From Candidatus Heimdallarchaeota archaeon (GTDB lineage: Archaea; Asgardarchaeota; Heimdallarchaeia; Heimdallarchaeales; Heimdallarchaeaceae), in contig DAOVET010000006.1 in the NCBI GenBank assembly GCA_030668825.1, positions 1-61,895 on the forward strand: a stretch of DNA of 61,895 bases, written 5' to 3'. The notes under the pieces are model-generated. The model was not told the DNA's origin. It saw only the letters and a program-made list of their open reading frames with translations, and ran no database searches. How positions within the stretch are numbered: the first letter of the stretch is position 1; every line of letters starts with the position of its first letter. Shown here piece by piece: positions 18,331 to 60,793 of this stretch. Both the position numbers and the translations under genes were made by a program.

Positions 18331-18446
18331 GGATCAGTAGTCTAGTGGATAAGGCACCAGCCTTCGGATATAGTATCGCGAAGAGAGAAACAGAGAAAAT
18401 AGGAGTAAGCTGGAGGTCGCAGGTTCGAATCCTGCCTGATCCGCCA
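18331..18446 (+). tRNA. tRNA-Arg(TCG) with 40-nt intron at 37/38 (18368-18407) and encoded CCA
   Basis: Acceptor GGATCAG/CTGATCC, D stem GTCT/AGGC, anticodon stem CCAGC/GCTGG with CT-TCG-G|A loop, T arm GCAGG-TTCGAAT-CCTGC; bulge-helix-bulge (CTTC/GGAG helix, GGA and TAA bulges). Confidence 0.95.
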
Positions 18447-44632: not shown

Positions 44633-46726
44633 ATGAAAAAAACCAATAGTACGATGTTTACTTTGACTATACTAGTTGTAATTTCCATGTCATTAATAAC
44701 AATGTCTGGTTTAGTTCAAGGTTACTCTAACGATATCATGGTAACTGAACCAAACAATTTAAGCAATCCCATCCCCCCAATTAGTGAAGAAGCTTATTCC
44801 CTTTCATCTAATTATACCTATGGGTTTAACGCAACTGCTGTTGTTAATAGAACAGTAGAAATGCAGACTTTTGGCACTCTGGGTTTAATAGATTCTATTG
44901 AAGTGAATATCATTGGGAACGAAAGTGTGATGACATATTTCAATTACACTCTGCCTAACATTCATGTTGATAATATTACATTTGTAAGTTTCCGTGTTTC
45001 GAATGCATCATATGAAGGTATAGGAAACTCCACCGCTACGAGAGCTTATACTTTTCAGAAACATATTAATTATACAACCTTCACGGTTCCATTTAACCTA
45101 AACCGAACAAGTATTGGTCAAGGAGCTCAATATTTCATCAATGTCTATATTGAATTTGCATATCCTTATACATATACAATAGTTAATACTGAACAAGTAC
45201 TCAAGTATGAGGAATTAATTTATCCTTTGATCAATAATATTCCAATAGTTGATGGATTGGTCTGGATAGAAAAACAAGGAGGAGATATTTTCTTAGACGA
45301 TGCGGAACATACAATAACTCCTAACAATTCTACAGAAGGCATAATATTAATCACTGATGCCCAAACTGGTCTTTTAAAGTGGTCTAACATAACTAGAGAA
45401 CCATTTAATTATACTCAATCATATGAAGATGATTTGATGTTGAACGTCTATTTATCATCAGTTAGTGCTTCCGGTGATGTAGAAAATCCTGCTAACACAA
45501 TTCTGTTTAAATCATCTAATGTGTATAGGAAAATTGAAATTGATCCATTTGGTTTGGTTAAGATAACAGAATCTCAAACATTAGTTTTTCTTGGTCCTAA
45601 GAAACCAGATGATTATAATGAAATAGATCTAAAACCATATGCTCTGAACGCCTTCCCTATAATTATACCAGTAAATGCAACCGTCATAGATCTATATGAT
45701 GAAGTAGGTTCACTAAATCAAGTTTATCAAGTTGAGAATCAAATCTTTACTCCAGGGGCATATAATCAACGTCCTAGCGTTTTTCCGGGTCATGATGCCT
45801 TGGTGATATTTCCAAGAACCCCATTATTCAATGGGGATCAAATAACCTTTACTATAGTTTATAGAGTGCCTTTGAATACCTTCTTAACAAAAGAAACAGG
45901 CTCAATTAACTATAAATTTGAGTTTGAGCCATGTTCTATCGTGAATTGGACCATTGATGAACTCAAAGTAGACGTTATTCTGCCTAAGGGAGCTGTATAC
46001 CAAGAAATTCAATACAACAATCCTGATCCCTATCAAGATATGTATGTAAGTTACGATAAAAAATTCGAATTCTCTACACTTGGATTCAGGCGTATTATGA
46101 GCTTTAAGTTCACTACTTTTTCAGGAAATGACAATGCTCCTGTAATAATCATTTACCGCTATTCGAGATTAAACATATTGATTACTTATTTCTTGCAAGT
46201 AATTGTTGTAGGTGTAGTCTTTGCAATTTATCTTGGCATTAGGTGGTCAACAAAGAAAGCTAAAGATTTAGTGGTAGATGAATCGGATAAAGAATTTATT
46301 CCGATAGATGAAATAGAGGAATTTGTTAAACAATATGAAGAAATTCTATCTATTCGTGAGAGATTACGTGAAACTAGATCAAAAATAGCTGCAAAGAAGT
46401 TGAAAGCTAAAGCAGGTAAAGATTTGATTGCCAAACTCGAGAAACGTCAAAGAATGGAGGAAGAAGAACTGAAAAAGACAAAGGAATCTCTGATATCTTT
46501 TGGTGGAAGATATAAGGAAAATGTCCAAAAGATCGAGATTGCTGAAAGAAAACTTTACGAAGAAAGAAGAAATCTTCGCATGCTTCAGCAAGAATACAGG
46601 GTCAAGAAGAACATGACCAGAGAGTCATATATGAAGCTCTTCCGAGAAAGGCAGCAAACTATTGAGAAACTAAAGAACGAAATTAATAGTCACTTAATCA
46701 GCCTAAGAATGCTTTTAGAACCTTAA
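44633..46726 (+). CDS. Ribophorin I / OST1-like oligosaccharyltransferase accessory subunit
   Basis: Signal peptide; RKIEIDPFGLVKITE, DEVGSL, PRTPLFNG, LKVDVILPKGA resemble RPN1 motifs; single TM then cytosolic coiled coil. Confidence 0.8.
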   Translation: MKKTNSTMFTLTILVVISMSLITMSGLVQGYSNDIMVTEPNNLSNPIPPISEEAYSLSSNYTYGFNATAVVNRTVEMQTFGTLGLIDSIEVNIIGNESVMTYFNYTLPNIHVDNITFVSFRVSNASYEGIGNSTATRAYTFQKHINYTTFTVPFNLNRTSIGQGAQYFINVYIEFAYPYTYTIVNTEQVLKYEELIYPLINNIPIVDGLVWIEKQGGDIFLDDAEHTITPNNSTEGIILITDAQTGLLKWSNITREPFNYTQSYEDDLMLNVYLSSVSASGDVENPANTILFKSSNVYRKIEIDPFGLVKITESQTLVFLGPKKPDDYNEIDLKPYALNAFPIIIPVNATVIDLYDEVGSLNQVYQVENQIFTPGAYNQRPSVFPGHDALVIFPRTPLFNGDQITFTIVYRVPLNTFLTKETGSINYKFEFEPCSIVNWTIDELKVDVILPKGAVYQEIQYNNPDPYQDMYVSYDKKFEFSTLGFRRIMSFKFTTFSGNDNAPVIIIYRYSRLNILITYFLQVIVVGVVFAIYLGIRWSTKKAKDLVVDESDKEFIPIDEIEEFVKQYEEILSIRERLRETRSKIAAKKLKAKAGKDLIAKLEKRQRMEEEELKKTKESLISFGGRYKENVQKIEIAERKLYEERRNLRMLQQEYRVKKNMTRESYMKLFRERQQTIEKLKNEINSHLISLRMLLEP

Positions 46727-48880: not shown

Positions 48881-49090
48881 ATGAATTTAATTTCAATAAG
48901 ATTGCCAAGTGAGTTTGTTGAAATTCTGGATGAAATGGTCCTACAGGGTAGATATGCATCAAGATCTGAAGCAATAAGGCTTGCACTTAGAGATTTTTAT
49001 AGGGAACACTATGCATCAAAACAATCAACTGATTTTCGTTTCCCAAATATTGACAACAAATATAATAATATAATTTTTGAAGATGATTAG
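48881..49090 (+). CDS. Ribbon-helix-helix (CopG/NikR-like) regulator
   Basis: ISIRLP..LDEMV..GRYASRSEAIRLALRD. Confidence 0.85.
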   Translation: MNLISIRLPSEFVEILDEMVLQGRYASRSEAIRLALRDFYREHYASKQSTDFRFPNIDNKYNNIIFEDD

Positions 49091-49269
49091 GTTCTTCAAT
49101 CTCATCTATTTCCAGCTATAAGGGGCATTTGAAGAAACGTTAGGTTTAACAAAGTGAGAGTTTTTAGGAGTATACAATTAGATTAAATGTGTCTTGGAGA
49201 TAATCAGATGTTAAAGTGTTATCTTTAAAATCAAATCTCTATACTGAAAACCCAATATTGGTGAGCAAG

Positions 49270-50526
49270 ATGACAGACATGGAACAAGATGATTCTAGTG
49301 AAACAAGCTCCTTTGATGAGCCCAAGAAGAATCGTTTTGTAAAGACTCGAAATTTCTTTTCAACAATTAATGAAAAAATAACCCCTGCTTTACCTTACCT
49401 GAAGAATAGATATCTGAGGTATTCTGTTTCGTTTGTTCTTCTAGGACTTGTTGTTTATCTCTATATTCTCTATGAAAAATATCGTGATGATGAAACAGCA
49501 CCCTTCCTATTTTTCTCAATATCACCAGATGCGCTTGTTCCTATGGGGTTGGTTTTCGCACTTTTAATGGTTTTTTATGTCTCATGGGATGATGCTTTTT
49601 TCAAGAAATATCGAACCCCAGGATTGTATATGGTTGTATTAACAACTGTTTTTTATGCACTAATCTTTTCAGGTCTCAGTGAGTATCTATTCAAACTAGA
49701 GATAGCTAGATGGTTAACAAGGTTAACAGGAACAATTGTTTCATCTGTACTGATCGTTTTTGGAGTGAATATACGTAGTGTTACATGGTTAACAACGAGT
49801 TATATGACAAGAATTGATTTTGGGATTATTCCTAGTGGGGAAGGAATTATGGGGATAACGGCAAGATTTTTTGGTTTAGTAGAACATATGACTAAAATTG
49901 ATTTTATAACTGCTCCTAGTGGAGAAGCAGCAATACTTATTGATGCTGCGTGCAGTGGTATACATTCACTTACTATTTTTACAGTTATTTTCTTAATAAT
50001 GCTTTTTGAAGCAAGAAGAAGAATGTTTTGGGGTTGTGAAAGAGGAGTCATAACAATAATTAAAGCTCTTAAAACTTATTTTGCAAGTATACCTCAAGCA
50101 ATTCAAGAAGAAGGAAAAAAGGTATTTATTAAAGATTTTAGCCTTCGATTAACAAAGGTGCTTTGGGTTTTTTTTAGAGTGGGACTTATAACTCTAATTG
50201 GAATTCTTGGAACCTATATAGTTAATCTTATACGGATTATTATAATAATTACATTATTCTACTTTTATGGTGGATCTGTAGGTTATCCAGTTCACAACTA
50301 TCTAGGATATGCCATGCTTATCCTGTGGCTGCCTATTTTCTGGTTATTTATTCTTCCTATTGGCGAAAGAAAAGAATTAAAGAAAAAAAGGAAATTAAGA
50401 AGGAAAGAAAAGCGAATGAGTAGAAAGAAGAAGAAGTTAAACCAAAAAAGTAAAATAAAAACAGAAGAAGAGGAAATAATTGCTTCTTCTAGTAAAGAAA
50501 TCGATGAGTCAAGTCTAAATTCGTAG
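49270..50526 (+). CDS. Archaeosortase/exosortase-family protein-sorting transpeptidase
   Basis: Polytopic; putative Cys-Arg-His triad in IDAACSG, NLIRI, VHNYLG; Lys-rich tail. Confidence 0.85.
   Translation: MTDMEQDDSSETSSFDEPKKNRFVKTRNFFSTINEKITPALPYLKNRYLRYSVSFVLLGLVVYLYILYEKYRDDETAPFLFFSISPDALVPMGLVFALLMVFYVSWDDAFFKKYRTPGLYMVVLTTVFYALIFSGLSEYLFKLEIARWLTRLTGTIVSSVLIVFGVNIRSVTWLTTSYMTRIDFGIIPSGEGIMGITARFFGLVEHMTKIDFITAPSGEAAILIDAACSGIHSLTIFTVIFLIMLFEARRRMFWGCERGVITIIKALKTYFASIPQAIQEEGKKVFIKDFSLRLTKVLWVFFRVGLITLIGILGTYIVNLIRIIIIITLFYFYGGSVGYPVHNYLGYAMLILWLPIFWLFILPIGERKELKKKRKLRRKEKRMSRKKKKLNQKSKIKTEEEEIIASSSKEIDESSLNS
49801..49929 (+). repeat. Diverged internal duplication, 84-nt period
   Basis: YMTRIDFGIIPSGEG (49801) and HMTKIDFITAPSGEA (49885). 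Confidence 0.75.
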
Positions 50527-51666
50527 TCTTTCAAAAACTTCTTTTGTTTGTTCTGTAGTTTTTTGCCATGATAGCTGTTCTGCTACTTCTCTAGATTTTT
50601 CCCTAATTTTTTCCGCAGTTTTTGGATTATTACGGAACTCAATTGCTTTTAATGCAAAATCAGCTATAGATCTGGGGGAAATTATCAATGTGTCATCATG
50701 ATTGAAAGTTTCTGCTTCTGGGGTTGTTAATATTGGGGTTTGACAGGCCATAGCTTCTAACAAAACCAAACTCATCCCTTCATGACTAGAAGGGAGTAAG
50801 AATAGATCAACAGAACTGAAGAATGTATTCTTCTTATGGTTATCGTAAATATATCCAAAATCTATGATATTCTCATTTAATTCTAATTTATCAATCTGAC
50901 TTAATATCTTCTTTCTTGAGTTCAGATCATCTCCTGCAATGAGTAGTTTAACGTCTGGAATTTCTTCCTTAATTTTTTTAATTATTGGCAGAATTAAATG
51001 AGCTCCCTTTCCTGCTGTCATTCTTCCAAGGAAACCTAAAACAAATTCTTTTTCCTTCTTATTGTAGATTTTTTCATCTGTTTTACAATGAATTCTTGTA
51101 TCTACACCATTTGGGATAACAGTTATTTTTTCTTCTTCAATGGAGTAATATTCAACTAATTCCTCTTTAATAGCCTCACTAACCGCTATTAAATGACTGG
51201 CTCTTTTTAGAACTCTTTTTTCCACGAATTTTAGTAATGGAAATAAAAGACGAACTCTTCGTTCCACCCAACTTAGTTGTTTTAAAGGTAATTTGTCAGC
51301 TCCTCGTTTTTCCCTACTAAAAGTGGTATGAACGGTTTCAACAATAGGATATTTATTCTTAATCCCTAATGAAGATAGTAGATTCATATTTCCCTGAACT
51401 ACATCTGGGTTTAGTTTCTTAACAATTTCTTTTGACTTCTTCCAGTAGTTTCTAGAATAGAAATATCTTGAGGAAGAGGTTTCAATTAAGGATAAAAAAG
51501 GCACTTCTATTTTTCCGTTGGCTGATTCACAATCCTTAGCTGCTGAGATAATATGTGCTTCCCAATCTCCTTCTTCGTTTAAAATCTTAGCTAATTGGAA
51601 ACAATAAATCCAAGTCGCTCCTTTTTTGTATTCTTGAGTTAGAAAGCATACTTTTTTCTTATTCAT
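50515..51666 (-). CDS. Glycosyltransferase family 4
   Basis: IPNGVD, LGRMTAGKG, EGMSLVLLEAMA. Confidence 0.92.
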   Translation of the reverse strand: MNKKKVCFLTQEYKKGATWIYCFQLAKILNEEGDWEAHIISAAKDCESANGKIEVPFLSLIETSSSRYFYSRNYWKKSKEIVKKLNPDVVQGNMNLLSSLGIKNKYPIVETVHTTFSREKRGADKLPLKQLSWVERRVRLLFPLLKFVEKRVLKRASHLIAVSEAIKEELVEYYSIEEEKITVIPNGVDTRIHCKTDEKIYNKKEKEFVLGFLGRMTAGKGAHLILPIIKKIKEEIPDVKLLIAGDDLNSRKKILSQIDKLELNENIIDFGYIYDNHKKNTFFSSVDLFLLPSSHEGMSLVLLEAMACQTPILTTPEAETFNHDDTLIISPRSIADFALKAIEFRNNPKTAEKIREKSREVAEQLSWQKTTEQTKEVFERLRI

Positions 51667-51670
51667 TATA

Positions 51671-52555
51671 TTACCTCTGTATTAATTCTTCATAACGAAT
51701 AGCTAAAGTTTTCTTAACGACATCCTTATAGTTTTTATGAGTAACTGGTTTCATATCGAGCTTAATTACTAGATTAAAGAGATCTTCCAACAGTTTTCGC
51801 AGTTTAAAAGGTTCATAAATTGCATGCAGATAAAAACAAACATAGTCAATGCTTTGATCTGTGTATTTTTTGAAATTTTTTCTATATATTTTCTTTATTT
51901 CTTCGATACCTTTTCCTTTTTGTAACAACTCTTCAAAAGTTGGCTCAGTAACAGGGAGTTGGAGAATCTGTTGTGACTTCTTTTCTGTAGTTTCAAATTG
52001 TAATTGGAACGGTTCTGAATACTTATAGTCAGCTAAGAATTCTACTCCCTTTTCTTTCATGATTTGAAAATAGTACTTGTTTGTCTGGAAGTTTGGAGCC
52101 GCATTTGTTATGGGTACAGAATTGAATATTTGATTGTATTCTATGAAAATCTTCTCTATAAATTTCGATGTCTTTTCAAAAGAAAATCTACTAAAACTTG
52201 AAGACCATTCGACATGATTGTAACCATGAGGATGAATTTCAAATAATTCTTTATCATTATAATTTTTCAAAAGTGATTTTGCCGATTCCCTTATTCTTGC
52301 AGGCGGTAGAAGGACTCCGCGAAATAGGCTTTGTATACTGTTTCTTCTCCATGGAGATATTGTAAAAGAAATCTTTTCCTTATGCCTTATTTTCCTGAAG
52401 ATATTTCTCCCAGTAGCATATTTACCTAGACTTAGGTAAATGGTTGTAGGAATACCTAATCTCTTGACTATGTTGTAAATTTGTGGAATACCTTTTTTCA
52501 AACCTTCAAATGTATCAACATCTACTCTTAGACAAAAGTGGGTTTCAGTATTCAT
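51671..52555 (-). CDS. ArnD-like deformylase / polysaccharide deacetylase
   Basis: LRVDVDTFEGLKKGIP, HGYNHVEW, QLPVTEPTFEEL, LHAIYE parallel ArnD motifs (LRIDVDT, HAWDH, QIPVTLPT, HAEVE). Confidence 0.8.
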   Translation of the reverse strand: MNTETHFCLRVDVDTFEGLKKGIPQIYNIVKRLGIPTTIYLSLGKYATGRNIFRKIRHKEKISFTISPWRRNSIQSLFRGVLLPPARIRESAKSLLKNYNDKELFEIHPHGYNHVEWSSSFSRFSFEKTSKFIEKIFIEYNQIFNSVPITNAAPNFQTNKYYFQIMKEKGVEFLADYKYSEPFQLQFETTEKKSQQILQLPVTEPTFEELLQKGKGIEEIKKIYRKNFKKYTDQSIDYVCFYLHAIYEPFKLRKLLEDLFNLVIKLDMKPVTHKNYKDVVKKTLAIRYEELIQR

Positions 52556-52588
52556 TTTGTCACTTAACTCTTGTTTTTCTTTGTGATA

Positions 52589-53800
52589 TCAGTTTTCTAT
52601 CGCACTATAATATGCTTGTTCAATCTCTTTAGCTTTCTTCTCCCAAGTATAATTGTCAAGAACTTCTTCATACCCCAGCTTTCCTAACTCTTTTCTTCTG
52701 CTCTCAGATTCTAAAAGACCATTAATTCCATTAGCCAATTCAGATGGGTTCATTGGAGGAACAAGGACACAGTTTTCTCCAAATTTTGTTATTTCTCTGA
52801 TTCCTGGAATATCTGATGCAACAACGGGTTTCTTCATAGCCATAGCTTCTAAGACACTGATGCTAGAAGCTTCCACTATACTTGGAACGGCAACAATATC
52901 TGCCTTTGATAGGTATGGAGGTATTTCATCATTAGGGATCATTCCTATCAAACGGGTATTTTTATGCAGTTTTAGTTTATTAATCTCATTTTGAATTTTT
53001 TCTCTTTCGGGACCATCACCAATTATGAAAAGAATAGCATTAGGGTATTTTTCTACAACTTTTTTAAAACTTTGAACTAGACATATTACTCCATTCTTAG
53101 CAACTAATCTTCTAGATGTCATTATAATGGGTCCTGTTTCCTTAGAAATAGAGGAATTTGGTTTTACACCAGGTGAAAATTTATCAATATCTACACCGTT
53201 GAGAATGGTTATTATTCGTTTTTTATACTTAGGTTTTACCCAATCTTTTACAGTTTCTGCAAAATCATAATCAGTATGTATTTGAACTTCACATTTTTTT
53301 ACAAGAAAAGGAGCAAGAAAACGTTCCATCTTTCTGTAAAAACCAGCTTTAAATTTATTTGGTAATATTTGATTCCAATATTTATAATACGACCCATGAA
53401 TTGTATTGATTATTTTAGCTTTGTTTCTCTTTCCAATAATTCTTGCGGCAATACCTGCTGAATATATGTGCCCATGACAAATATCGAAAGGCTGCTCTCT
53501 TCCTTTTCTTGAACGGAAAAATAATGATTTCATAAGAAAAGAAAACTGTCTTGAGAAATTCAGCTGCTGAGGATTATAAGAGCGTCTAATTGTCCCACCG
53601 AAATCGATTCTTTTAATATTCACTCCTTTAATTAGTGCTTCTTTTTTTGAGTTGGGTATAGCCCCAGTAATATAAGTGACTTCATGCCCCCGTTTAACTA
53701 GTTCTTTTGCTAAATTTATCGCGTGAAGCTCAACTCCCCCACCGATACTTCCTTTATCGTCAGGACCTAACTCAAAGATCATTGCTATTTTCAACGGCAT
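52589..53800 (-). CDS. Glycosyltransferase family 4
   Basis: GGGVE, NGVD, RRLVAKNG, EASSISVLEAMA. Confidence 0.92.
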   Translation of the reverse strand: MPLKIAMIFELGPDDKGSIGGGVELHAINLAKELVKRGHEVTYITGAIPNSKKEALIKGVNIKRIDFGGTIRRSYNPQQLNFSRQFSFLMKSLFFRSRKGREQPFDICHGHIYSAGIAARIIGKRNKAKIINTIHGSYYKYWNQILPNKFKAGFYRKMERFLAPFLVKKCEVQIHTDYDFAETVKDWVKPKYKKRIITILNGVDIDKFSPGVKPNSSISKETGPIIMTSRRLVAKNGVICLVQSFKKVVEKYPNAILFIIGDGPEREKIQNEINKLKLHKNTRLIGMIPNDEIPPYLSKADIVAVPSIVEASSISVLEAMAMKKPVVASDIPGIREITKFGENCVLVPPMNPSELANGINGLLESESRRKELGKLGYEEVLDNYTWEKKAKEIEQAYYSAIEN

Positions 53801-53801
53801 T

Positions 53802-54791
53802 CTAATCACGCTTCTTTTTTGATACAAAAATCTCTTGTAAAATCCCTAAACTCCAGAAAATATGGCCTTCTATAAACATTAGAGGTAGCATGAAAAGGAA
53901 TTGCCAATGCCTGTATTTTATCGTCTGAACAATTGAGGCGATTTGAATCGCGATTATGTACAAACCAAAATACACAGCTATTCCTACGCCGATCCATAGA
54001 TTAACAAAGAGTGCTATTGATAGAAATAAACCAGTAAGAAAATATAGTACGGGTAATAAGTGCCATAACTCTAATCCCACTTTATGTGTTCTAAAAAATT
54101 GTATTTTTCCTATAGCATATTTTTTTGACTTATTTCGAAATGTTTTGTATTTCTGAGGTCTTTGGTGATAAATTATTGCACTTGGTGTAAAAAAGAGCTT
54201 TTTCCCTTTCTGAATTAATCTATAATTGATATCTGTATCTTCAGCTGTAAGTAGGGATTCATTAAATGGTAAAACCTCTTCTAGAGCTTCCTTTCTATAA
54301 GCTGCATTGCATCCTGCAGCGCTTTGAACAAATCTCTCTTTTTTGTCAAATATGCTCTTAACTTGCTCTGACCATCCTCCTCCAAAAACAGTGTCATAAA
54401 TTGCACTAACTGCTTTCCCAAAAAGACTCTCATCTGGATATTCTAAGTGAGGGCCTGCTACACATGCAACTTCATGGTCCATTTTGTTAAAAGTTTCAAT
54501 TATATTTTTCAGCCATTCTTTATCTGCTACTACATCTGAATCTGTAAAAACAATTATATCTCCTTGAGCTATTTTTAATGCCTCATTGCAAGCAGCAGCT
54601 CTAGTTCCTCTATCCTCGTAAACTATCTCGCAATCGTATTCCTTGGCAATATTAATAGAATCATCCGTTGAATGACCATCAGCAATTATAATTTCATTGG
54701 GAACTAAACTTTGTTTCTTTATTGATTCAAGACATGCTCTCAAGGTTGAATCATTGTTGTATGTTGGAATGATTAGAGAAATACTGCTCAT
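53802..54791 (-). CDS. Glycosyltransferase family 2 with C-terminal TM helices
   Basis: IIPTYN, DGHSTD, FTDSD, AEDTDI. Confidence 0.92.
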   Translation of the reverse strand: MSSISLIIPTYNNDSTLRACLESIKKQSLVPNEIIIADGHSTDDSINIAKEYDCEIVYEDRGTRAAACNEALKIAQGDIIVFTDSDVVADKEWLKNIIETFNKMDHEVACVAGPHLEYPDESLFGKAVSAIYDTVFGGGWSEQVKSIFDKKERFVQSAAGCNAAYRKEALEEVLPFNESLLTAEDTDINYRLIQKGKKLFFTPSAIIYHQRPQKYKTFRNKSKKYAIGKIQFFRTHKVGLELWHLLPVLYFLTGLFLSIALFVNLWIGVGIAVYFGLYIIAIQIASIVQTIKYRHWQFLFMLPLMFIEGHIFWSLGILQEIFVSKKKRD

Positions 54792-54793
54792 TA

Positions 54794-55324
54794 TTAATCA
54801 CCACTCCTTTTAATCTTTAAACGTTCTTCATATAAGAAATGTTTTTTCTTGTACCCTTGTGACGAATACATAGCGTTTTGATATTCAAATAACTGATCTG
54901 GATTCTCTGCGAGTATGATTTCAATTTTTGTTTTTGCTTCTTCTTTCAAAACATCTAAACTTTTTGCATCTGTTAAAGGACAATACCAAACAAGCCAACG
55001 TAGATTATATTCATTTTCTTTGATTTTGTTTATTTTGAAAAAGAGGGGGAACAGTTTACAATCTAAAGGTCTGCTACTGTAAATGTCACACAAACCTTCT
55101 TCAGAAAGAAAATAACAATTGTTGCTGTCTTCCCTTTTGGCGATTACTATAGTTTTATTTTCTCCCTGGCCAATACTGTTGAACCAATTCTTGTTCTCTT
55201 GTAATTTGCTAATTCTGTCGAAATCATTGTTTGTTAAAGCTGGAGGTGTGCTTTTACAACACTTACTTTTACAATATTTTGAGCAGATTTCAACTGGTTC
55301 CATTTCTCTAAGCATCCTTAGCAA
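54794..55324 (-). CDS. YkgJ-family cysteine-cluster protein
   Basis: CSKYCKSKCC, CYFL..GLCDIYSSRPLDCKLFP. Confidence 0.85.
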   Translation of the reverse strand: MLRMLREMEPVEICSKYCKSKCCKSTPPALTNNDFDRISKLQENKNWFNSIGQGENKTIVIAKREDSNNCYFLSEEGLCDIYSSRPLDCKLFPLFFKINKIKENEYNLRWLVWYCPLTDAKSLDVLKEEAKTKIEIILAENPDQLFEYQNAMYSSQGYKKKHFLYEERLKIKRSGD

Positions 55325-55339
55325 TTTTTTTGAATGATC

Positions 55340-56611
55340 CTAACTCAAATAAAATGAATCATTAATCATCTGATTCATATCATCAGCTGGTTTAATCAAT
55401 TCTGTTAATCCCTTGTTTGTTAGTTGATAAATAGCTGGTCTTGGATAGCCAAACTGTTCACTCATTGAAATTGTATATGCTCCACAATTGAGAACAACTA
55501 GTAAATCTCCTTCCTCAATCTCGAAATTGACTGCTTCATCACTCAGTATATCCACAGGGAGACATAATGGACCACCTATGTTAGTGTACTGTCCCTTCCC
55601 CCTAAAGTTTGCAGGAACAACACTATAGTGCGAATATCGCATTGGAATTAGTGTATTTGCACCAACATCAATAAAAGCCCATTTTCTACCCCACGATTTC
55701 TTTGTTCTTAATACCTTAGTAATTGCTACAAAACTATCCTCTATTAGGTATCTTCCTGGTTCAAAGATTATTTTTTTGTTTTCAATATTGTCCATTTTTG
55801 TAGAAACTTGTTCGCCTAGTTTTTCTAATTGAAACCCCTCTTTCTCCAGGGTAGATTTGCTTGCTAATCCTCCCCCCAAATTTATTTCGGAGAGTGAAAT
55901 AGCCTGTTTATCCTCCAAATCAGTTACATACCCATTAAGAAACCCAAGTAACTCATCATAAAACTCATGTGACGTTAGATTTGTTCCAACATGAGTATGA
56001 ACCCCAACTGGATCCAAATGAGGGCTTTTCTTAGCATATTCAAACAGTTTTACTCCTCGAGAATAGTCGATTCCTAATTTGCTATTTTTCTTTATTAACA
56101 GCTTTCTTTCGGTAGTTTCTTTCAATTTTGGATGTATTCTGACCGTGATTTTTTGAACTAATTCTAGTTTTTCTGCTATTTTTTCTACTTGTTGTATTTC
56201 GTTAAGAGATTCAACATTGAGATAATTTATTTTATTTGCAATAGCATAATTCAATTCATCTAAAGTTTTTGCTGGACCATTAAGAACAATTTTGTTAAAG
56301 GGTACTCCTGCTTTTTCTGCCAATTTCAATTCAAAAAGTGACATAGCTTCAATTCCTAGATCAAGTTTGTGTGATTCTTGTAATATTCTGCCTAGATAGT
56401 TAGCTTTTGCGGCATATGAAATGAATAAATCTGGAATATGCTTTCCTAATTTGTTCTTTATTTCCAACACATTTTCTTGAAATCTTTGCAGGAGAAATAA
56501 GAAGAAAGGTACTGTCTTATTTTCTACTAATGATTCTATGTCCTTCTGTTGAATCTGTAATTTGTTGTTTTCATAGCAAAGATAGGGGTAGTTCTCTATT
56601 ATGTCTAACAT
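55340..56611 (-). CDS. Fold-III PLP decarboxylase (diaminopimelate/ornithine/arginine family)
   Basis: YAAKAN (PLP Lys), HTHVGT, INLGGG, EPGRYL, GPLC..DIL, GAYT. Confidence 0.88.
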   Translation of the reverse strand: MLDIIENYPYLCYENNKLQIQQKDIESLVENKTVPFFLFLLQRFQENVLEIKNKLGKHIPDLFISYAAKANYLGRILQESHKLDLGIEAMSLFELKLAEKAGVPFNKIVLNGPAKTLDELNYAIANKINYLNVESLNEIQQVEKIAEKLELVQKITVRIHPKLKETTERKLLIKKNSKLGIDYSRGVKLFEYAKKSPHLDPVGVHTHVGTNLTSHEFYDELLGFLNGYVTDLEDKQAISLSEINLGGGLASKSTLEKEGFQLEKLGEQVSTKMDNIENKKIIFEPGRYLIEDSFVAITKVLRTKKSWGRKWAFIDVGANTLIPMRYSHYSVVPANFRGKGQYTNIGGPLCLPVDILSDEAVNFEIEEGDLLVVLNCGAYTISMSEQFGYPRPAIYQLTNKGLTELIKPADDMNQMINDSFYLS

Positions 56612-56732
56612 ATTGCTCTTGCGCTTACTATAATATTCTCTTTAATTAATATTATCGCTTGGGAATATTGTGTTTAAATCTCAAATATGTCATTAGCCAG
56701 CATATTTTTGAATATCCTAAAGATTTTGATTT

Positions 56733-57890
56733 ATGGATAGAGATTCTATCTTCACCACTCTTTCCCAACTTGAAAACAATGTTAGATTGCAAGAAGGAAT
56801 ATATGGTATAATTAAATTTTTGGCTGTTATTGATAGATATCCTAACTCCTCTATGATAAATTTGTCAAAAGAAGCTGGTTTTCCTATCCCAATATGTGTA
56901 GCCATTAGAAATGAACTTGCAAAAATTGGTTGGTGTTCAAGAGAAAGTGACGGTACTGAAATCACTGAACTAGGTTCTGAAGCATTATCAAGGCTAGGAA
57001 AATTCAATAAATCTTTCTCATGTAATGAGTGTAATGGTAGTGGGTTAAAGCTCCCCCTTGAAAATTACAAAGATTCTTTGATACAGATTAGAAAATTTAC
57101 AGATATGCGTGGTCCTCCAAATACTGTAATAGACCAATCGTTTGCTACAACAGAAACAAGTCTAGTTCGAGTTCTTGCAATGGGTAACAACTATGATCTT
57201 TTCCATGAGAGTTATGCACTTGTAGGTGACAGTGACTTAACCAGTATTCCTTTAGCACTGTTTTCTAATTCTAAATCTAGAGTAGTTGTTTTCGACATAG
57301 ATACAAGAATTCGAGATATAATAGATTGCGCGAATAAAGAGCTTAAACTAAATATTGAGTTTGTGGAACATGACTTAAGAAAGAATATTCCTGATGAATA
57401 CAATAGCCAGTTTAGCTGCTTTGTAACTGACCCACCTTATACAATTAATGGCCTCAATCTGTTTATCTCTCGAGGCATACAGCTCATAAATGATGCTCGA
57501 GGTGGAGTTGGCTATCTTTCATTTGGAAGTAAACCACCACAAGATCAACTTCAAATTCAGAAGAACTTGTCGAAAATGGGTTGTTTATTTACTCATATTC
57601 TACCAAGATTTAATGAATATGTAGGCGCACAAAAACTGGGTGGGGTTTCAACTTTTTATCGTTTGCAAATCTTATCTGATGCTGAACCTCTTATAAGCAC
57701 AGATTATGAAGGGATTCTTTATACTGGTGAAAGAAATCCAACAATAAGAGTTTATCAGTGTAAGAACTGTAAAACAGAGATTGAAGTTGGTCAAGGTAAC
57801 AATTTTGTAACCATCGAGCAGCTAAAAGAGGTTGGTTGTCCGAAATGCAATCTCCATATCTTTCATAAAAAAGGAGAAAGAAAGACATAA
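56733..57890 (+). CDS. bpsA: BpsA-like branched-chain polyamine (aminopropyl) transferase with Zn-ribbon C-terminus
   Basis: DQSFATTETS, VGDSDLTS, VFDIDTRI, HDLR, TDPPYT, CKNC...CPKC. Confidence 0.8.
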   Translation: MDRDSIFTTLSQLENNVRLQEGIYGIIKFLAVIDRYPNSSMINLSKEAGFPIPICVAIRNELAKIGWCSRESDGTEITELGSEALSRLGKFNKSFSCNECNGSGLKLPLENYKDSLIQIRKFTDMRGPPNTVIDQSFATTETSLVRVLAMGNNYDLFHESYALVGDSDLTSIPLALFSNSKSRVVVFDIDTRIRDIIDCANKELKLNIEFVEHDLRKNIPDEYNSQFSCFVTDPPYTINGLNLFISRGIQLINDARGGVGYLSFGSKPPQDQLQIQKNLSKMGCLFTHILPRFNEYVGAQKLGGVSTFYRLQILSDAEPLISTDYEGILYTGERNPTIRVYQCKNCKTEIEVGQGNNFVTIEQLKEVGCPKCNLHIFHKKGERKT

Positions 57891-57952
57891 TGATTTTAAA
57901 CTGAACGTGGGATTATAGAACTAGATGCAGCAATAAAACTTTATTTAGAACA

Positions 57953-59650
57953 ATGCAGTTAGGTGTAAACGTGTCTCGTAAATCCTATTTCGTTCCTACA
58001 ATAATCATTGGGAAACTATTTCTGTTTTTCCTTATTCTGTACTTTAATCTAGGGATGTATGGATTCGATTCATACCTTCATTTACAATATGTTGATTCCA
58101 TAATTAGCAATGGTCATATTTTAGAACTCCCCATAGCCCCATCCTATGCTGATTTCATTGGCTTTCATGTTTTTGCTTCAGCCATTTCATCAATGACAGG
58201 GTTAGAAGCTAATATAATTTATGAATTTGTAAGCACAATAATTCCAATACTTATTTTTGATTTAACTATAGTTGCTTTTATTCGCCACGTGGATAAAAAG
58301 AAAAAGGGATACATATCCAATGATGTAAACTTAAAATATCTAGCACTGATTTTACTCTATCCTGCAATTATCGGCATTCAGATGCTCTTGGGACGTCCCA
58401 ATTCATTAGGACTAAGCTTATTCAGCTTGTGTTTATACTTGTATTTATGCAAACCTGAAAGATTCAGAGCACAGATCTTAGCTGGTTTTCTTGCAGTTGT
58501 TACACTAGAAGTTCATCATCTTTCCGCAATTTTCCTATTACCTGTCATATTTTTTAGCAGTATATTTTTAGCTAAAAACTATAGAGCTATACTTTCTTTA
58601 GTTTATGCGATTCCTGCAGTTTTAATAATTCGAATCATACAAACTTCGAGAGAATTTTCTATTGTAAATCAATACTTAGAGTTGACAAGTCCTGCTTATA
58701 AAAAAATGTATGATATCTTCATCAAAAATGAATATTTATTTCTAATTGTTTGGCTAGCAATAACTTTGCTTGGATTTTTTATAAGAATGAGATATGGTGA
58801 AAAAATATCTAATTTCTTCACTACTAGAAAACCAACCAAAATACTCCTAATTTCCTCAGTGTGTGCAATAGTAATTCTTGAGGTGTCTGGATTGTTTGTA
58901 TATACTGCTGCTCTTAATTCATGGTTTGTTACATTGGAACTCGGAATTATTGTGGTTTTGAGTGGGATTGCTCTAATATTCAACAATACTGCGCGAATAG
59001 CGTTATTTTCACTTGGCTTCTTTTTTTATGGTTTAACGGTAGTTCTCTCTCTCATGTTTAAATCGGAGCATGAGCTTTCTTGGGTGGCTCCAAGAACTTT
59101 TATTTTCACAATTCTCTTTGTTAGTTTATTAGCTTATATTGCAATATCAGATATTCTTCCAAAACTTAAAGCTAAATGGAAAACACTTTTTGTTTCTGTC
59201 CTCATACTAAATTCTTATTTTAGCTTTGCATACATGGGAGACCAATATCTACCAGGGTATAATCTGACAAATTCTTATCAGAACATGACAATTGCTTATA
59301 GTATAGATTCTGCTGTTAATCTTACAATAATCACACAATTAACAATAAGTATTCCATTTTCAGTTTCAAAATTCATAGATGGTTTCAATATTTACAATCG
59401 CAATACTCAAGTGTTTTTAAATTCGAGCAAGACGATTCAAGAGAACGGATATCTAATAGCAGCATCACACTATAGATACATAGTATTAGGCACGGTTATG
59501 GATTTGTGGTTGGGGCTTCCTTTGTGTTTGTCAACACAAGACTTGACTTATCTCTTGAATGTTTTACGACAAGGCTTTCCATGGCCTAATAGACCAACAT
59601 TACATGTTGTTATAAGTAACAACCACAATTATCTCATATATCATTTGTAG
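57953..59650 (+). CDS. Polytopic GT-C-like membrane protein
   Basis: About 12-13 TM; first external loop GFDSYLH; HHLS; soluble C-terminal external domain with NxS/T sites. Confidence 0.6.
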   Translation: MQLGVNVSRKSYFVPTIIIGKLFLFFLILYFNLGMYGFDSYLHLQYVDSIISNGHILELPIAPSYADFIGFHVFASAISSMTGLEANIIYEFVSTIIPILIFDLTIVAFIRHVDKKKKGYISNDVNLKYLALILLYPAIIGIQMLLGRPNSLGLSLFSLCLYLYLCKPERFRAQILAGFLAVVTLEVHHLSAIFLLPVIFFSSIFLAKNYRAILSLVYAIPAVLIIRIIQTSREFSIVNQYLELTSPAYKKMYDIFIKNEYLFLIVWLAITLLGFFIRMRYGEKISNFFTTRKPTKILLISSVCAIVILEVSGLFVYTAALNSWFVTLELGIIVVLSGIALIFNNTARIALFSLGFFFYGLTVVLSLMFKSEHELSWVAPRTFIFTILFVSLLAYIAISDILPKLKAKWKTLFVSVLILNSYFSFAYMGDQYLPGYNLTNSYQNMTIAYSIDSAVNLTIITQLTISIPFSVSKFIDGFNIYNRNTQVFLNSSKTIQENGYLIAASHYRYIVLGTVMDLWLGLPLCLSTQDLTYLLNVLRQGFPWPNRPTLHVVISNNHNYLIYHL

Positions 59651-59659
59651 GTGAATTAA

Positions 59660-60793
59660 ATGGATCCTCTAAAAATTGTTCAAGTTACTCCTTTCTTCGG
59701 TTCAAGAAGTTATGGGGGTACTGAAAGATACGTGAGTAATCTTTCAACTGAACTTGCAAATAGAGGTCATCATATTGATGTTTTTACAACTAAAAATAGC
59801 ACTAAAGTCCCCTACCAGAGTTATTACAAGAACATGACTGTTCACCGCTTCTATAGTCCATGGAATGTTTTTGGTATTAACCCTGCATGTTTTATGTTTC
59901 ATAAAATGCTCCAGCTAAAGGATATTGATGTGTTTCATGTTCATTCCTATATATACTTCACAACTATTCAAGCTGCTTTAACTAAATTACTTAAGAGAAC
60001 CCCTCTACTCCTACATATTCATGGTGGAGTAGGAAGACCCCCCTACAAAACAGGATTCTTAAAGGAATTCGCAAAACTATTTTATGATTATACTTTAGGA
60101 AAGTTTGTTCTATCTCAAGCAGATATAATTGCATCCGTTAGTTTACAAGATTCAAAGCTGTTGGAAAAAACAATTCATTCTAATCTTAACAGAATTATTA
60201 TTGTAAACAATGCAATTAATCCAGAAGATTTTCCTGAGATTTCACCTGTTTTGCAGAAGAAAATTGTGATTTCATATGTTGGAGATTTGGAACCATGGAA
60301 AGGCATCCTCTATTATTCAAAGGTCATAAATAGGGTACTTAAACAGACAAAAAATATTTCTTTTTGGTTTGTGGGGAATGGGTCACTTTACTCTGCTCTA
60401 AAAGATAAATTTGAAGAAGAAAAACGAGTAAAACTATTTGGAGCTGTAGATTACAATGAAATCCCCAAAATTTTAGAAAAGACACATATTTTAGTTCAAC
60501 CTAGTTTCTGGGAAGGTTCTCCCACTACTATAATCGAAGCAATGGCTATGGGTATTCCTGTTGTTGCTTCCAATATTGGTGATATTCCTAGACTTTTAAA
60601 TTCTGGTGGAGATGGCATACTGTTTGAAGCTGGGAATGAAAACCAGTTAGAGGAAATAATCCTAAATGCTGCAAAAAACTATAATGAGCTAGTTGATACT
60701 GCAAGAAAAGCAAGGAGCAAAATCAGAAAAGACTTTGCTTTTAAGAATGTTACAAATCAAATTGAGGATTTGTATTATAAACTGGTTTCATGA
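59660..60793 (+). CDS. Glycosyltransferase family 4
   Basis: YGGTE, VGDLEPWKG, EGSPTTIIEAMA. Confidence 0.92.
   Translation: MDPLKIVQVTPFFGSRSYGGTERYVSNLSTELANRGHHIDVFTTKNSTKVPYQSYYKNMTVHRFYSPWNVFGINPACFMFHKMLQLKDIDVFHVHSYIYFTTIQAALTKLLKRTPLLLHIHGGVGRPPYKTGFLKEFAKLFYDYTLGKFVLSQADIIASVSLQDSKLLEKTIHSNLNRIIIVNNAINPEDFPEISPVLQKKIVISYVGDLEPWKGILYYSKVINRVLKQTKNISFWFVGNGSLYSALKDKFEEEKRVKLFGAVDYNEIPKILEKTHILVQPSFWEGSPTTIIEAMAMGIPVVASNIGDIPRLLNSGGDGILFEAGNENQLEEIILNAAKNYNELVDTARKARSKIRKDFAFKNVTNQIEDLYYKLVS

Follow-up and report, generated by a model that had tools for sequence, protein, structure and literature searches.

A possible aminopropylation trio and a candidate glycan gene set share an archaeosortase island in Heimdallarchaeaceae

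The DNA described here is a 61,895-nt stretch of contig DAOVET010000006.1 (assembly GCA_030668825.1; hereafter the window, whose numbering is used throughout) from an archaeon of the family Heimdallarchaeaceae (f1, with genera g1 to g5). It carries a compact ten-gene island (Table 1) in which a pyridoxal phosphate (PLP) decarboxylase, a YkgJ-type cysteine-cluster protein and a transferase related to BpsA lie at the centre of two divergent arms, with glycosyltransferases (GT), a deacylase, a polytopic membrane protein and an archaeosortase around them. We give even chances to the reading that these genes form two neighbouring, non-obligate modules: the three central genes (the trio), which may constitute an aminopropyl route that dispenses with the pyruvoyl S-adenosylmethionine (SAM) decarboxylase, and a separate glycan set.

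Table 1. Features of the island, in window positions
Feature	Position	Strand	Length and start
archaeosortase-like membrane protein	49216-50526	+	436 aa, GTG start; first ATG 49270
GT4a glycosyltransferase	50515-51666	-	383 aa
ArnD-like deacylase of the carbohydrate esterase 4 (CE4) fold	51671-52555	-	294 aa
GT4b glycosyltransferase	52589-53827	-	412 aa
membrane-anchored GT2 glycosyltransferase	53802-54791	-	329 aa
YkgJ-type CxxCxxCC Cys-cluster protein	54794-55324	-	176 aa
PLP decarboxylase, diaminopimelate-decarboxylase-derived	55340-56611	-	423 aa
divergent intergenic region, decarboxylase/BpsA-like	56612-56732		121 nt
BpsA-like transferase	56733-57890	+	385 aa
polytopic membrane protein	57953-59650	+	565 aa
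GT4c glycosyltransferase	59660-60793	+	377 aa

An earlier sequence-only reading of the same DNA had given the order and strands of all ten genes, a divergent intergenic region of about 120 bp and a 12-nt overlap of the convergent archaeosortase and GT4a genes, and the open reading frame (ORF) coordinates (49216-60793) bear out each of these. The intergenic region is presumed to be the shared promoter region of both arms. Gaps in the minus-strand arm are 15 nt (decarboxylase to YkgJ), 2 nt (YkgJ to GT2), 33 nt (GT4b to ArnD-like) and 4 nt (ArnD-like to GT4a), with a 26-nt overlap of GT2 and GT4b should the TTG start be used; those in the plus-strand arm are 62 nt (BpsA-like to membrane protein) and 9 nt (membrane protein to GT4c). 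Such packing alone is a poor guide to shared function, since equally tight spacing runs on downstream into an unrelated 102-aa ORF (after 9 nt) and then methionyl-tRNA synthetase (8-nt overlap). The upstream neighbours are a ribophorin-I-like gene, ThiF and a hexapeptide transferase. Pfam and NCBIfam assignments hold for every island protein except the 565-aa membrane protein. Close homologues of the window proteins carry the database names Candidatus Heimdallarchaeota or Heimdallarchaeaceae, and the island is not distinct from its surroundings in G+C content (0.30-0.36 across the window).

Synteny was compared over 20-kb flanks around 13 family and 7 more distant BpsA-like homologues, searched by tblastn with 18 window proteins. 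The whole ten-gene block is found in 8 of the 13 family loci and two more agree up to their contig ends; the other three, from two single-contig g4 genomes and one g5 genome, have only the BpsA-like, decarboxylase and YkgJ genes, the g5 locus retaining the hexapeptide transferase and methionyl-tRNA synthetase flanks without any glycan gene. The ten genes comprise a conserved core trio and, to either side of it, an accessory set that is present or absent as a whole. Full-length BpsA-like orthologues (47-95% identity) occur in 30/30 family genomes, and in 29 of these, as in the window, the BpsA-like gene has the decarboxylase gene as its divergent neighbour, with approximately 100-190 nt between the matches in every family genome having both; the exception, lacking a decarboxylase orthologue, is a 1.2-Mb assembly that is 76% complete. 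YkgJ (PF03692, 44.2 bits) is the next gene after the decarboxylase in each of the 13 family loci, the three without glycan genes among them, and had no match in the fetched loci of other families. In the sister families f5 and f6, neither this decarboxylase nor YkgJ lies beside the BpsA-like gene.

The BpsA-like protein contains the BpsA_C domain (PF01861; 156.4 bits against a cut-off of 27) and aligns through residues 43-298 with the Thermococcus BpsA structure 5xnc (E 1.2e-34). In the Thermococcus enzyme, Asp159 and Asp160 of the motif Gly157-Asp158-Asp159-Asp160 form salt bridges with the aminopropyl amine of decarboxylated SAM (PMC12979288). The window protein and all 8 other aligned family sequences read GDSD instead of GDDD, the form found in all seven aligned f5 and f6 sequences. 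The same division runs through 66 database homologues: of 44 close ones, 42 have GDSD and one GDGD, the remaining one being a fragment, and of 22 distant ones, 19 have GDDD, one GEDD, one GDSD and one GDDD by alignment only. BpsA-like proteins fused to an AdoMet_dc domain invariably have GDDD or GEDD (11/11). The equivalents of Asp158, Asp160, Asp225 and Tyr290 are retained in the window protein (roles from PMC12979288), and Glu259 aligns with a proline, the numbering offset being derived from the alignment. The C-terminus is a zinc-ribbon-like Cys4 tail (CxxC...CxxC) with a basic end, not the acidic carrier tail. A DPPY motif, which also occurs in N-methyltransferases, is present in all BpsA-like proteins aligned.

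A second BpsA_C protein is encoded elsewhere in the window's genome (contig C61, 4710-5573; L065). It has 287 aa, GDMD and EPPM motifs and the same zinc-ribbon tail, and it lies among unrelated genes, next to OapC-like and Rpb5 ones. Most family genomes encode a counterpart of about 290 aa.

A search of 31 family genomes, of which two are single-contig assemblies, found no pyruvoyl SAM decarboxylase domain AdoMet_dc (PF02675). The class-2 form (PF01536) was not found in the window's genome, in a search that matched in no control genome either. AdoMet_dc is present in 7/7 f5 genomes, fused to the BpsA-like gene, and in 6/7 f6 genomes, where it adjoins the BpsA-like gene in all six genomes having both. 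A 301-genome sample of the phylum was also searched with a relative of the decarboxylase and with AdoMet_dc. The families with the closest decarboxylase relatives (27/28 genomes in f1, 4/4 in f8, 3/3 in f25 and 1/1 each in f22 and f30) had no AdoMet_dc (0/28, 0/4, 0/3, 0/1 and 0/1, or 0/37 together), and f5 and f6 had no decarboxylase relative (0/21 and 0/11) and AdoMet_dc in 20/21 and 9/11 genomes. Elsewhere the two co-occur: f14 has a decarboxylase relative in 23/68 and AdoMet_dc in 27/68 genomes, with both in 11, and f12 has a decarboxylase with an ornithine-decarboxylase-like pocket in 4/5 and AdoMet_dc in 5/5. As many families possess neither gene, the pattern is suggestive without being exclusive.

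Similar pairings of a transferase gene with a decarboxylase gene were seen in other Asgard families. In G083, a genome of a second family (f22), a BpsA-like gene with GDGD lies 3.6 kb from a decarboxylase of the CLP type. In f8 and f25 a related decarboxylase abuts, overlaps or directly follows a TYW2/Taw2-type gene in 3/3 loci (L178 5270-7357, L179 6260-8289 and L180 6121-8150); we take TYW2 to be a family that transfers the aminocarboxypropyl group of SAM. This TYW2-adjacent decarboxylase, which resembles diaminopimelate decarboxylase (DAPDC), lacks even the active-site Cys motif, and AdoMet_dc was found in 0/7 genomes of the two families. In f14, a GT4 gene precedes the related decarboxylase in 3/3 loci (L181 5681-9519, L183 4714-8424 and L184 1704-4254) and FtsZ follows it in both loci scanned there; the AdoMet_dc matches of this family lie in open frames of about 474-507 aa, lengths that hint at fusions.

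Both Pfam domains of its fold are present in the PLP decarboxylase (Orn_Arg_deC_N, 129.6 bits), and its closest structures in the PDB are the LysA enzymes 2p3e and 1twi. It scores 244.1 bits on the lysA model TIGR01048 (cut-off 297.9, not reached), 170.5 bits on the exosortase-A-associated model TIGR03099 (E 5.7e-50; cut-off 478.45, not reached) and 33.7 bits on the nspC model. The PLP-lysine motif YA-x-KAN is kept in 8/8 aligned orthologues. The clade reads GGPLCLP, or more broadly GGPLC(L/I/Q)P, where DAPDC types read G-P-x-C-E-S, and is one residue shorter at RPxxY, of which the Arg is deleted; this Arg is present in all seven aligned DAPDC-type sequences and C-E-S in all but one (C-E-N). 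The Arg and Tyr of RPxxY and the Glu after the active-site Cys are presumably the residues with which LysA holds the far end of diaminopimelate. The enzyme thus appears, from these alignments, to be a DAPDC-derived PLP decarboxylase with a changed substrate pocket. One orthologue (G004:C54 46787-48046) has an in-frame TAG, and stops also interrupt several matches to the 565-aa protein; these may represent sequencing error, a start-site effect or decay. Contigs of three runs labelled RNA-like (X18 and X19, 'probably DNA', and X20, 'RNA?') and of one DNA run gave patchy cover of the stretch. One X20 contig (95-99% alike) spans 55230-55590, across the boundary of the YkgJ and decarboxylase genes; a contig is no evidence of a transcript, and we draw no conclusion from it.

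Deoxyhypusine synthase is encoded in 59/61 genomes, so spermidine or a close analogue should be required. Gene content, synteny, phyletic patterns and motif changes are what we observed, and from them we infer every chemical step of the following scheme. The BpsA-like transferase would take the 3-amino-3-carboxypropyl group from SAM and attach it to an amine, for which agmatine, putrescine or a polyamine is the likeliest choice, and the PLP decarboxylase would then strip the carboxyl group from the product; alternatively, SAM would be decarboxylated first by the PLP enzyme and the transfer would follow. We lean modestly toward transfer first, because Ser has taken the place of the Asp that engages the free amine of decarboxylated SAM. 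Pyruvoyl arginine-decarboxylase-like genes (27/30 family genomes) and arginase-family genes (29/30) make agmatine or its products a possible acceptor supply. The product of the trio would serve spermidine-type polyamine needs such as hypusine.

Several observations weigh against this scheme or against the independence of the trio. An Asp to Ser change is a weak guide to donor choice. Many Asgard families have neither gene (in f11, for example, AdoMet_dc occurs in 11/76 genomes and the decarboxylase in 0/76), so the absence of AdoMet_dc alone demands no replacement. AdoMet_dc homologues can act as ornithine or arginine decarboxylases (PMC10407285), and the contrast with f5 and f6 is therefore no proof that decarboxylated SAM is used there. 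The two single-contig g4 genomes had no match to AdoMet_dc or to pyruvoyl arginine decarboxylase, which leaves one decarboxylation step unaccounted for under any model, and their PLP enzyme could be an arginine or ornithine decarboxylase. A saccharopine-dehydrogenase-like gene (Sacchrp_dh_C, about 380 aa) in all five family genomes tested leaves room for an aspartate-semialdehyde route. A single weak Spermine_synth match (30.6 bits) also turned up in the window's genome; we rejected it as a spermidine synthase, the protein being a methyltransferase-like one of 277 aa with a motif I unlike what we take to be the spermidine synthase signature. The glycan genes of g1, g2 and g3 are probably co-transcribed with the trio, since they lie directly downstream of both trio arms (gaps of 2 and 62 nt). 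Lastly, a tree of 21 BpsA-like proteins leaves the base of the family unresolved, so that gain and loss of the glycan set cannot be told apart.

The sequence-only reading had likened the deacylase to ArnD, and the comparison is sustained by a match to NF011923 through residues 8-264 (76.7 bits, E 1.7e-21, under the ArnD equivalog cut-off of 382) and an alignment with the ArnD structure 8t0j over residues 7-211 (E 7.4e-7). RVDVDT and HxHGxNH are invariant in 7 orthologues, and their residues D12 and D14 (the N-terminal DxD) and H110 and H114 (the His-His motif) are predicted to bind metal. A deacylase profile found relatives in 24/28 family genomes and in only three others among the 301 sampled, and a metagenome scan returned 11 loci, all of them close relatives (45-95% identity), with no distant ones. 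In two genomes of two other Asgard families (G031 and G097) the deacylase adjoins a GT4b orthologue (45-46% identity). In G097, whose deacylase relative reaches 143.6 bits on NF011923, a 244-aa archaeosortase (44.9 bits on the ArtC model, 39.6 bits on the signature) lies 2.7 kb from this pair; the glycan core therefore does not need the trio, and together with the three trio-only family loci this makes the two sets separable. In G083 an ArnD-like gene abuts a 1190-aa gene of the PMT_2-type C-fold glycosyltransferases (GT-C).

All three GT4 proteins match Glycos_transf_1: GT4a with 105 bits (and Glyco_transf_4 with 82), GT4b with 130.7 and GT4c with 101.5. Orthologues of GT4a (47-87% identity) occur in 10 of the 13 family loci, and those of GT4c (63-97%) follow the 565-aa gene in 8 of them. 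The best full-length NCBIfam models for GT4b are transferases of N-acetylglucosamine (GlcNAc), BshA (107.7 bits) and MshA (82.5 bits), both under cut-off, and GlcNAc transfer followed by deacylation fits at least as well as the logic of ArnC and ArnD. The GT2 protein (Glycos_transf_2, 101 bits; best NCBIfam models MftF, EpsD and PgaC-like, all under cut-off) has a hydrophobic stretch at residues 242-291 that corresponds to C-terminal membrane helices, as in polyprenol-phosphate sugar synthases. Its assignment as ArnC was not upheld: NF007986 gives 15.7 bits against a cut-off of 529, and the likeness is limited to the GT2 domain and the C-terminal helices.

The 565-aa membrane protein had no sequence match in Pfam, NCBIfam or the PDB. 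A HMMER profile run over 1.84 billion representatives gave 7 matches, six in its own family and the seventh weak (E 2.5e-4) and to a 671-aa protein without any Pfam family. Atlas features relate it (0.98) to archaeal clusters auto-named as oligosaccharyl- or PMT-type transferases. Its AlphaFold model is poor (pLDDT, the predicted local distance difference test, 56.5; 25 close homologues). From this model the best Foldseek match had E 4.5e-3 (none to E 1e-3) and TM (template modelling) scores of at most 0.32, the top rows being mostly GT-C, and a wide VIA-align search gave generic helical matches only (Z at most 8.8). An hhalign comparison with the PMT_2 protein of G083 returned a probability of 0.1. 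Of the earlier proposal that this is a GT-C-like protein, no part is carried by sequence matches, and what survives is a GT-C leaning in weak fold and language-model signals; the protein is possibly GT-C-like. Over 61 genomes its gene was found in 24/24 of g1 and 2/2 of g2, and not found in g3 (0/1, the locus ending at a contig end), g4 (0/2), g5 (0/1) or the other families (0/30).

The archaeosortase reaches 25.1 bits on the exosortase/archaeosortase signature TIGR04178 (cut-off 23) and 21.5 bits on the ArtC model, and about 8 hydrophobic segments are predicted in it. The Cys of CSGxHS, the Arg of NxxR and the His of PxHxYLGY, which we take to be the catalytic residues, are invariant in 8 sequences (the window protein, 6 orthologues and 1 paralogue). 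That it goes with the glycan genes, as had been suggested, agrees with its distribution: two of five genomes have both it and the 565-aa protein and three have neither, neither turning up anywhere in the three trio-only genomes, two of which are single-contig. A separate archaeosortase of about 244 aa is present in all five genomes tested, including those without the glycan module, so the island enzyme is a second, dedicated copy. The genome encodes 85 secreted candidates with a C-terminal helix and basic tail, one of them in the window at 242-1138, and none of the 85 could be attributed to the island paralogue rather than to the housekeeping archaeosortase. The motif D(L/P)YPL before the C-terminal helix was considered as a sorting signal and rejected; all ten carriers are NosD/beta-helix paralogues, so the motif is a domain end. 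These carriers (L074-L083) are secreted right-handed beta-helix proteins that end in the motif and, after a spacer, a hydrophobic helix with a basic tail.

Taken together, the glycan module resembles a group of envelope glycosylation genes confined to certain genera. On a carrier, GT4b and the ArnD-like deacylase would produce a free-amine sugar, and the other GT4 proteins and the membrane GT2 would lengthen the glycan or provide sugars. The site of action of the 565-aa protein would be outside the membrane, and the extra archaeosortase would have its own surface proteins to process. A bolder proposal, which we regard as a long shot, is that the module builds an anchor like glycosylphosphatidylinositol (GPI), with the archaeosortase joining cleaved surface proteins to a free-amine glycolipid. 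GT4b and the deacylase would then make a lipid-linked free-amine sugar in the manner of PIG-A and PIG-L, which the other transferases would lengthen and which, in genera with the embedded trio, could also receive an aminopropyl group, and the dedicated archaeosortase would use the free amine as the nucleophile for protein transfer.

Among the explanations that compete with two separable modules, the best placed, unlikely as we judge it, is a single ten-gene system in which the aminopropyl or polyamine group of the trio would be put on a GT-built glycan or glycolipid that decorates or anchors archaeosortase substrates. The sequence-only reading had proposed an integrated amine-glycan system of this kind, of which the conserved ten-gene neighbourhood stands, while trio and glycan core have each been found apart. 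Glycan genes lie to either side of the trio, downstream of both divergent arms, in the full arrangement of 8/13 family loci and in the two that end at contig ends, and in every g1 and g2 genome the 565-aa gene neighbours the BpsA-like gene. The TIGR03099 match further gives a DAPDC-like decarboxylase beside an exosortase a bacterial parallel, although the score falls far under the cut-off. Against one system stand the polyamine-type genes unlinked to any glycan gene in part of the relatives (3/13 family loci), the archaeosortase/deacylase/GT4 core without the trio in G097 and G031, the ties of the f5 and f6 BpsA-like relatives to SAM decarboxylase rather than to glycan genes, and the close spacing that takes in methionyl-tRNA synthetase too.

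Ordinary polyamine synthesis, with the PLP enzyme an ornithine, arginine or lysine decarboxylase and the BpsA-like protein using decarboxylated SAM from a source that went undetected, is in our estimate decidedly unlikely. The fold family does include many basic-amino-acid decarboxylases (PMC8503589), and the g4 genomes, without a match to pyruvoyl arginine decarboxylase, would need an arginine decarboxylase. In 5/7 f5 genomes, moreover, a distant decarboxylase of the same fold lies side by side with the genes for deoxyhypusine synthase and an arginase-family protein (G057:C19 18239-21502, with corresponding sites in G055, G049, G051 and G053), in what is likely a polyamine/hypusine cluster. 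This explanation is at odds with the absence of AdoMet_dc across the family, with the replacement, in 43/44 close homologues, of an Asp that binds the amine of decarboxylated SAM, and with the pyruvoyl arginine-decarboxylase-like gene that most family genomes already have. The pocket, too, has neither Cys-Asp nor Cys-Glu-Ser, which we take to be those of ornithine decarboxylase and LysA, respectively.

An aspartate-semialdehyde route seems highly improbable; here the saccharopine-dehydrogenase-like enzyme would make carboxyspermidine or carboxyaminopropylagmatine, the PLP enzyme would decarboxylate it and the BpsA-like protein would do something else, such as N-methylation. The dehydrogenase-like gene is unlinked, lying beside a radical-SAM activase and transporters, and its protein has no NCBIfam match beyond an N-terminal Rossmann region. 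The decarboxylase, moreover, always adjoins the BpsA-like gene and scores 33.7 bits on nspC against 244 on lysA. In favour of the route, the DPPY motif would suit an N-methyltransferase and known carboxyspermidine decarboxylases have the same fold (PMC8503589; PMC10599626). That the decarboxylase is the organism's ordinary LysA in a coincidental position has a close to negligible chance: it is the sole lysA-model match in its genome, its nearest solved structures are LysA enzymes and many orthologues are named 'diaminopimelate decarboxylase family protein' in databases, but its score under the cut-off, its pocket without the RPxxY Arg and the Glu-Ser after the active-site Cys, and the failure to find diaminopimelate epimerase (PF01678, the sole pathway gene searched) in the 90.6%-complete genome set it apart from LysA, as the sequence-only reading had supposed.

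Other features of the neighbourhood were recorded in passing. An unlisted 69-aa ORF at 48881-49090 (+), between the hexapeptide transferase and the archaeosortase, resembles a ribbon-helix-helix (RHH) regulator by eye. It occurs in 11/13 family loci, including the g5 locus without glycan genes, and was not found in the two g4 loci; with 89-100% identity in 8 same-genus loci and 61-73% in three other genera, it is conserved far above its neighbours. The ribophorin-I-like protein (44633-46726, +; 697 aa), encoded 2.5 kb upstream of the island and in the same neighbourhood in several family loci, has a signal-like start, one late membrane helix and a long charged tail. A metallo-beta-lactamase-fold gene (222 aa) directly follows the BpsA-like gene in 8/13 family loci (L035, L037, L040-L043, L045 and L046), one of them without glycan genes; the window lacks it, and the rest of that genome offers no more than a 28% relative. 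Contig C65 of the same genome (1-5519; L064) holds a second run of hexapeptide transferase, RHH and archaeosortase genes convergent with GT4a, ArnD-like and GT4b. Its sequences are closest to another species of the same genus and, given a genome contamination of 4.67%, it is probably a co-binned strain fragment. The sole Rfam match in the window is a tRNA at 18331-18443 (+), which probably carries an intron, since its 113 nt exceed the 71-position model.

To our knowledge, polyamine aminopropylation proceeds only with decarboxylated SAM from a pyruvoyl enzyme or with aspartate semialdehyde. A SAM-based route with a PLP decarboxylase, if true, would be a third solution to a problem of primary metabolism. 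Heimdallarchaeia are the group most often placed beside eukaryotes, and such a route would bear on how the eukaryote ancestor made spermidine for hypusine. The glycan module supplies well-defined candidate genes for the structure to which dedicated archaeosortases attach proteins. A GPI-like anchor, were it real, would mean that the archaea closest to eukaryotes tether proteins by a glycolipid, and would account for the DAPDC-like decarboxylases and deacetylases that accompany bacterial exosortases. Literature searches on polyamines, aminopropylation and Asgard archaeosortases, which covered listings and selected passages, turned up no description of the trio or the island.

The closest relative of known function is BpsA, the N4-bis(aminopropyl)spermidine synthase of Thermococcus kodakarensis and Thermus thermophilus (5xnc, 6j27), with which the window protein shares the PF01861 domain and near full-length similarity. 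It differs in Asp159 to Ser, Glu259 to Pro and a Cys4 tail in place of the acidic carrier tail, in a genome where no SAM decarboxylase was found, and its low-GC sediment host gives no sign of the hyperthermophily of BpsA hosts. For the proposed chemistry the nearest parallel is microcin C, in which MccD transfers an aminocarboxypropyl group and the N-terminal PLP domain of MccE decarboxylates, both orders having been considered (PMC10491745; PMC8503589). There, too, aminopropylation takes two steps, shared between a SAM-dependent enzyme of the methyltransferase fold and a decarboxylase of the alanine-racemase fold. The acceptor in that case is the phosphoramidate of a peptide-nucleotide antibiotic, whereas the window pair is chromosomal, occurs across the family and has YkgJ as a partner; the parallel is drawn from published descriptions of MccD and MccE.

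For the glycan set, the exosortase A (XrtA/EpsH) loci for PEP-CTERM exopolysaccharide have in common with the island an exosortase-type enzyme, GT4 proteins, a CE4 deacetylase and a DAPDC-like decarboxylase. The combination had been thought to be without precedent, a view that the NCBIfam models named for an exosortase-A-associated decarboxylase, an XrtA-system deacetylase and XrtA-system GT4 proteins overturn. The XrtA-named models TIGR03099, TIGR03006, TIGR03087, TIGR03088 and TIGR04063 match window proteins weakly, all far under cut-off (e.g., 170.5 against 478 and 104 against 409). The archaeal island differs further in having no acyl-CoA ligase or carrier protein, in adding the BpsA-like and YkgJ genes, and in a decarboxylase that is separable from the sortase genes.

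The Arn pathway of lipid A aminoarabinose offers an ArnD-like deacylase, a GT2 with C-terminal helices and a possible GT-C protein for comparison, but the island has no ArnA, ArnB or ArnE/F genes, the conserved partner of its deacylase is a GT4 and not the GT2, and archaea lack lipid A. MshA/MshB, BshA/BshB and PIG-A/PIG-L are pairs that transfer GlcNAc and then de-N-acetylate it. They share with the island a GT4 beside a deacylase, exposing a sugar amine, an arrangement kept in three Asgard families; the window deacylase differs in having the CE4/ArnD rather than the LmbE/PIG-L fold, and scores stay under the equivalog cut-offs. Of the two elements, the separable trio appears to be the more novel, its inferred chemistry a variation on known two-step aminopropylation, and the glycan set is best described, to judge from its gene content, as a likely archaeal variant of exosortase-linked polysaccharide loci.

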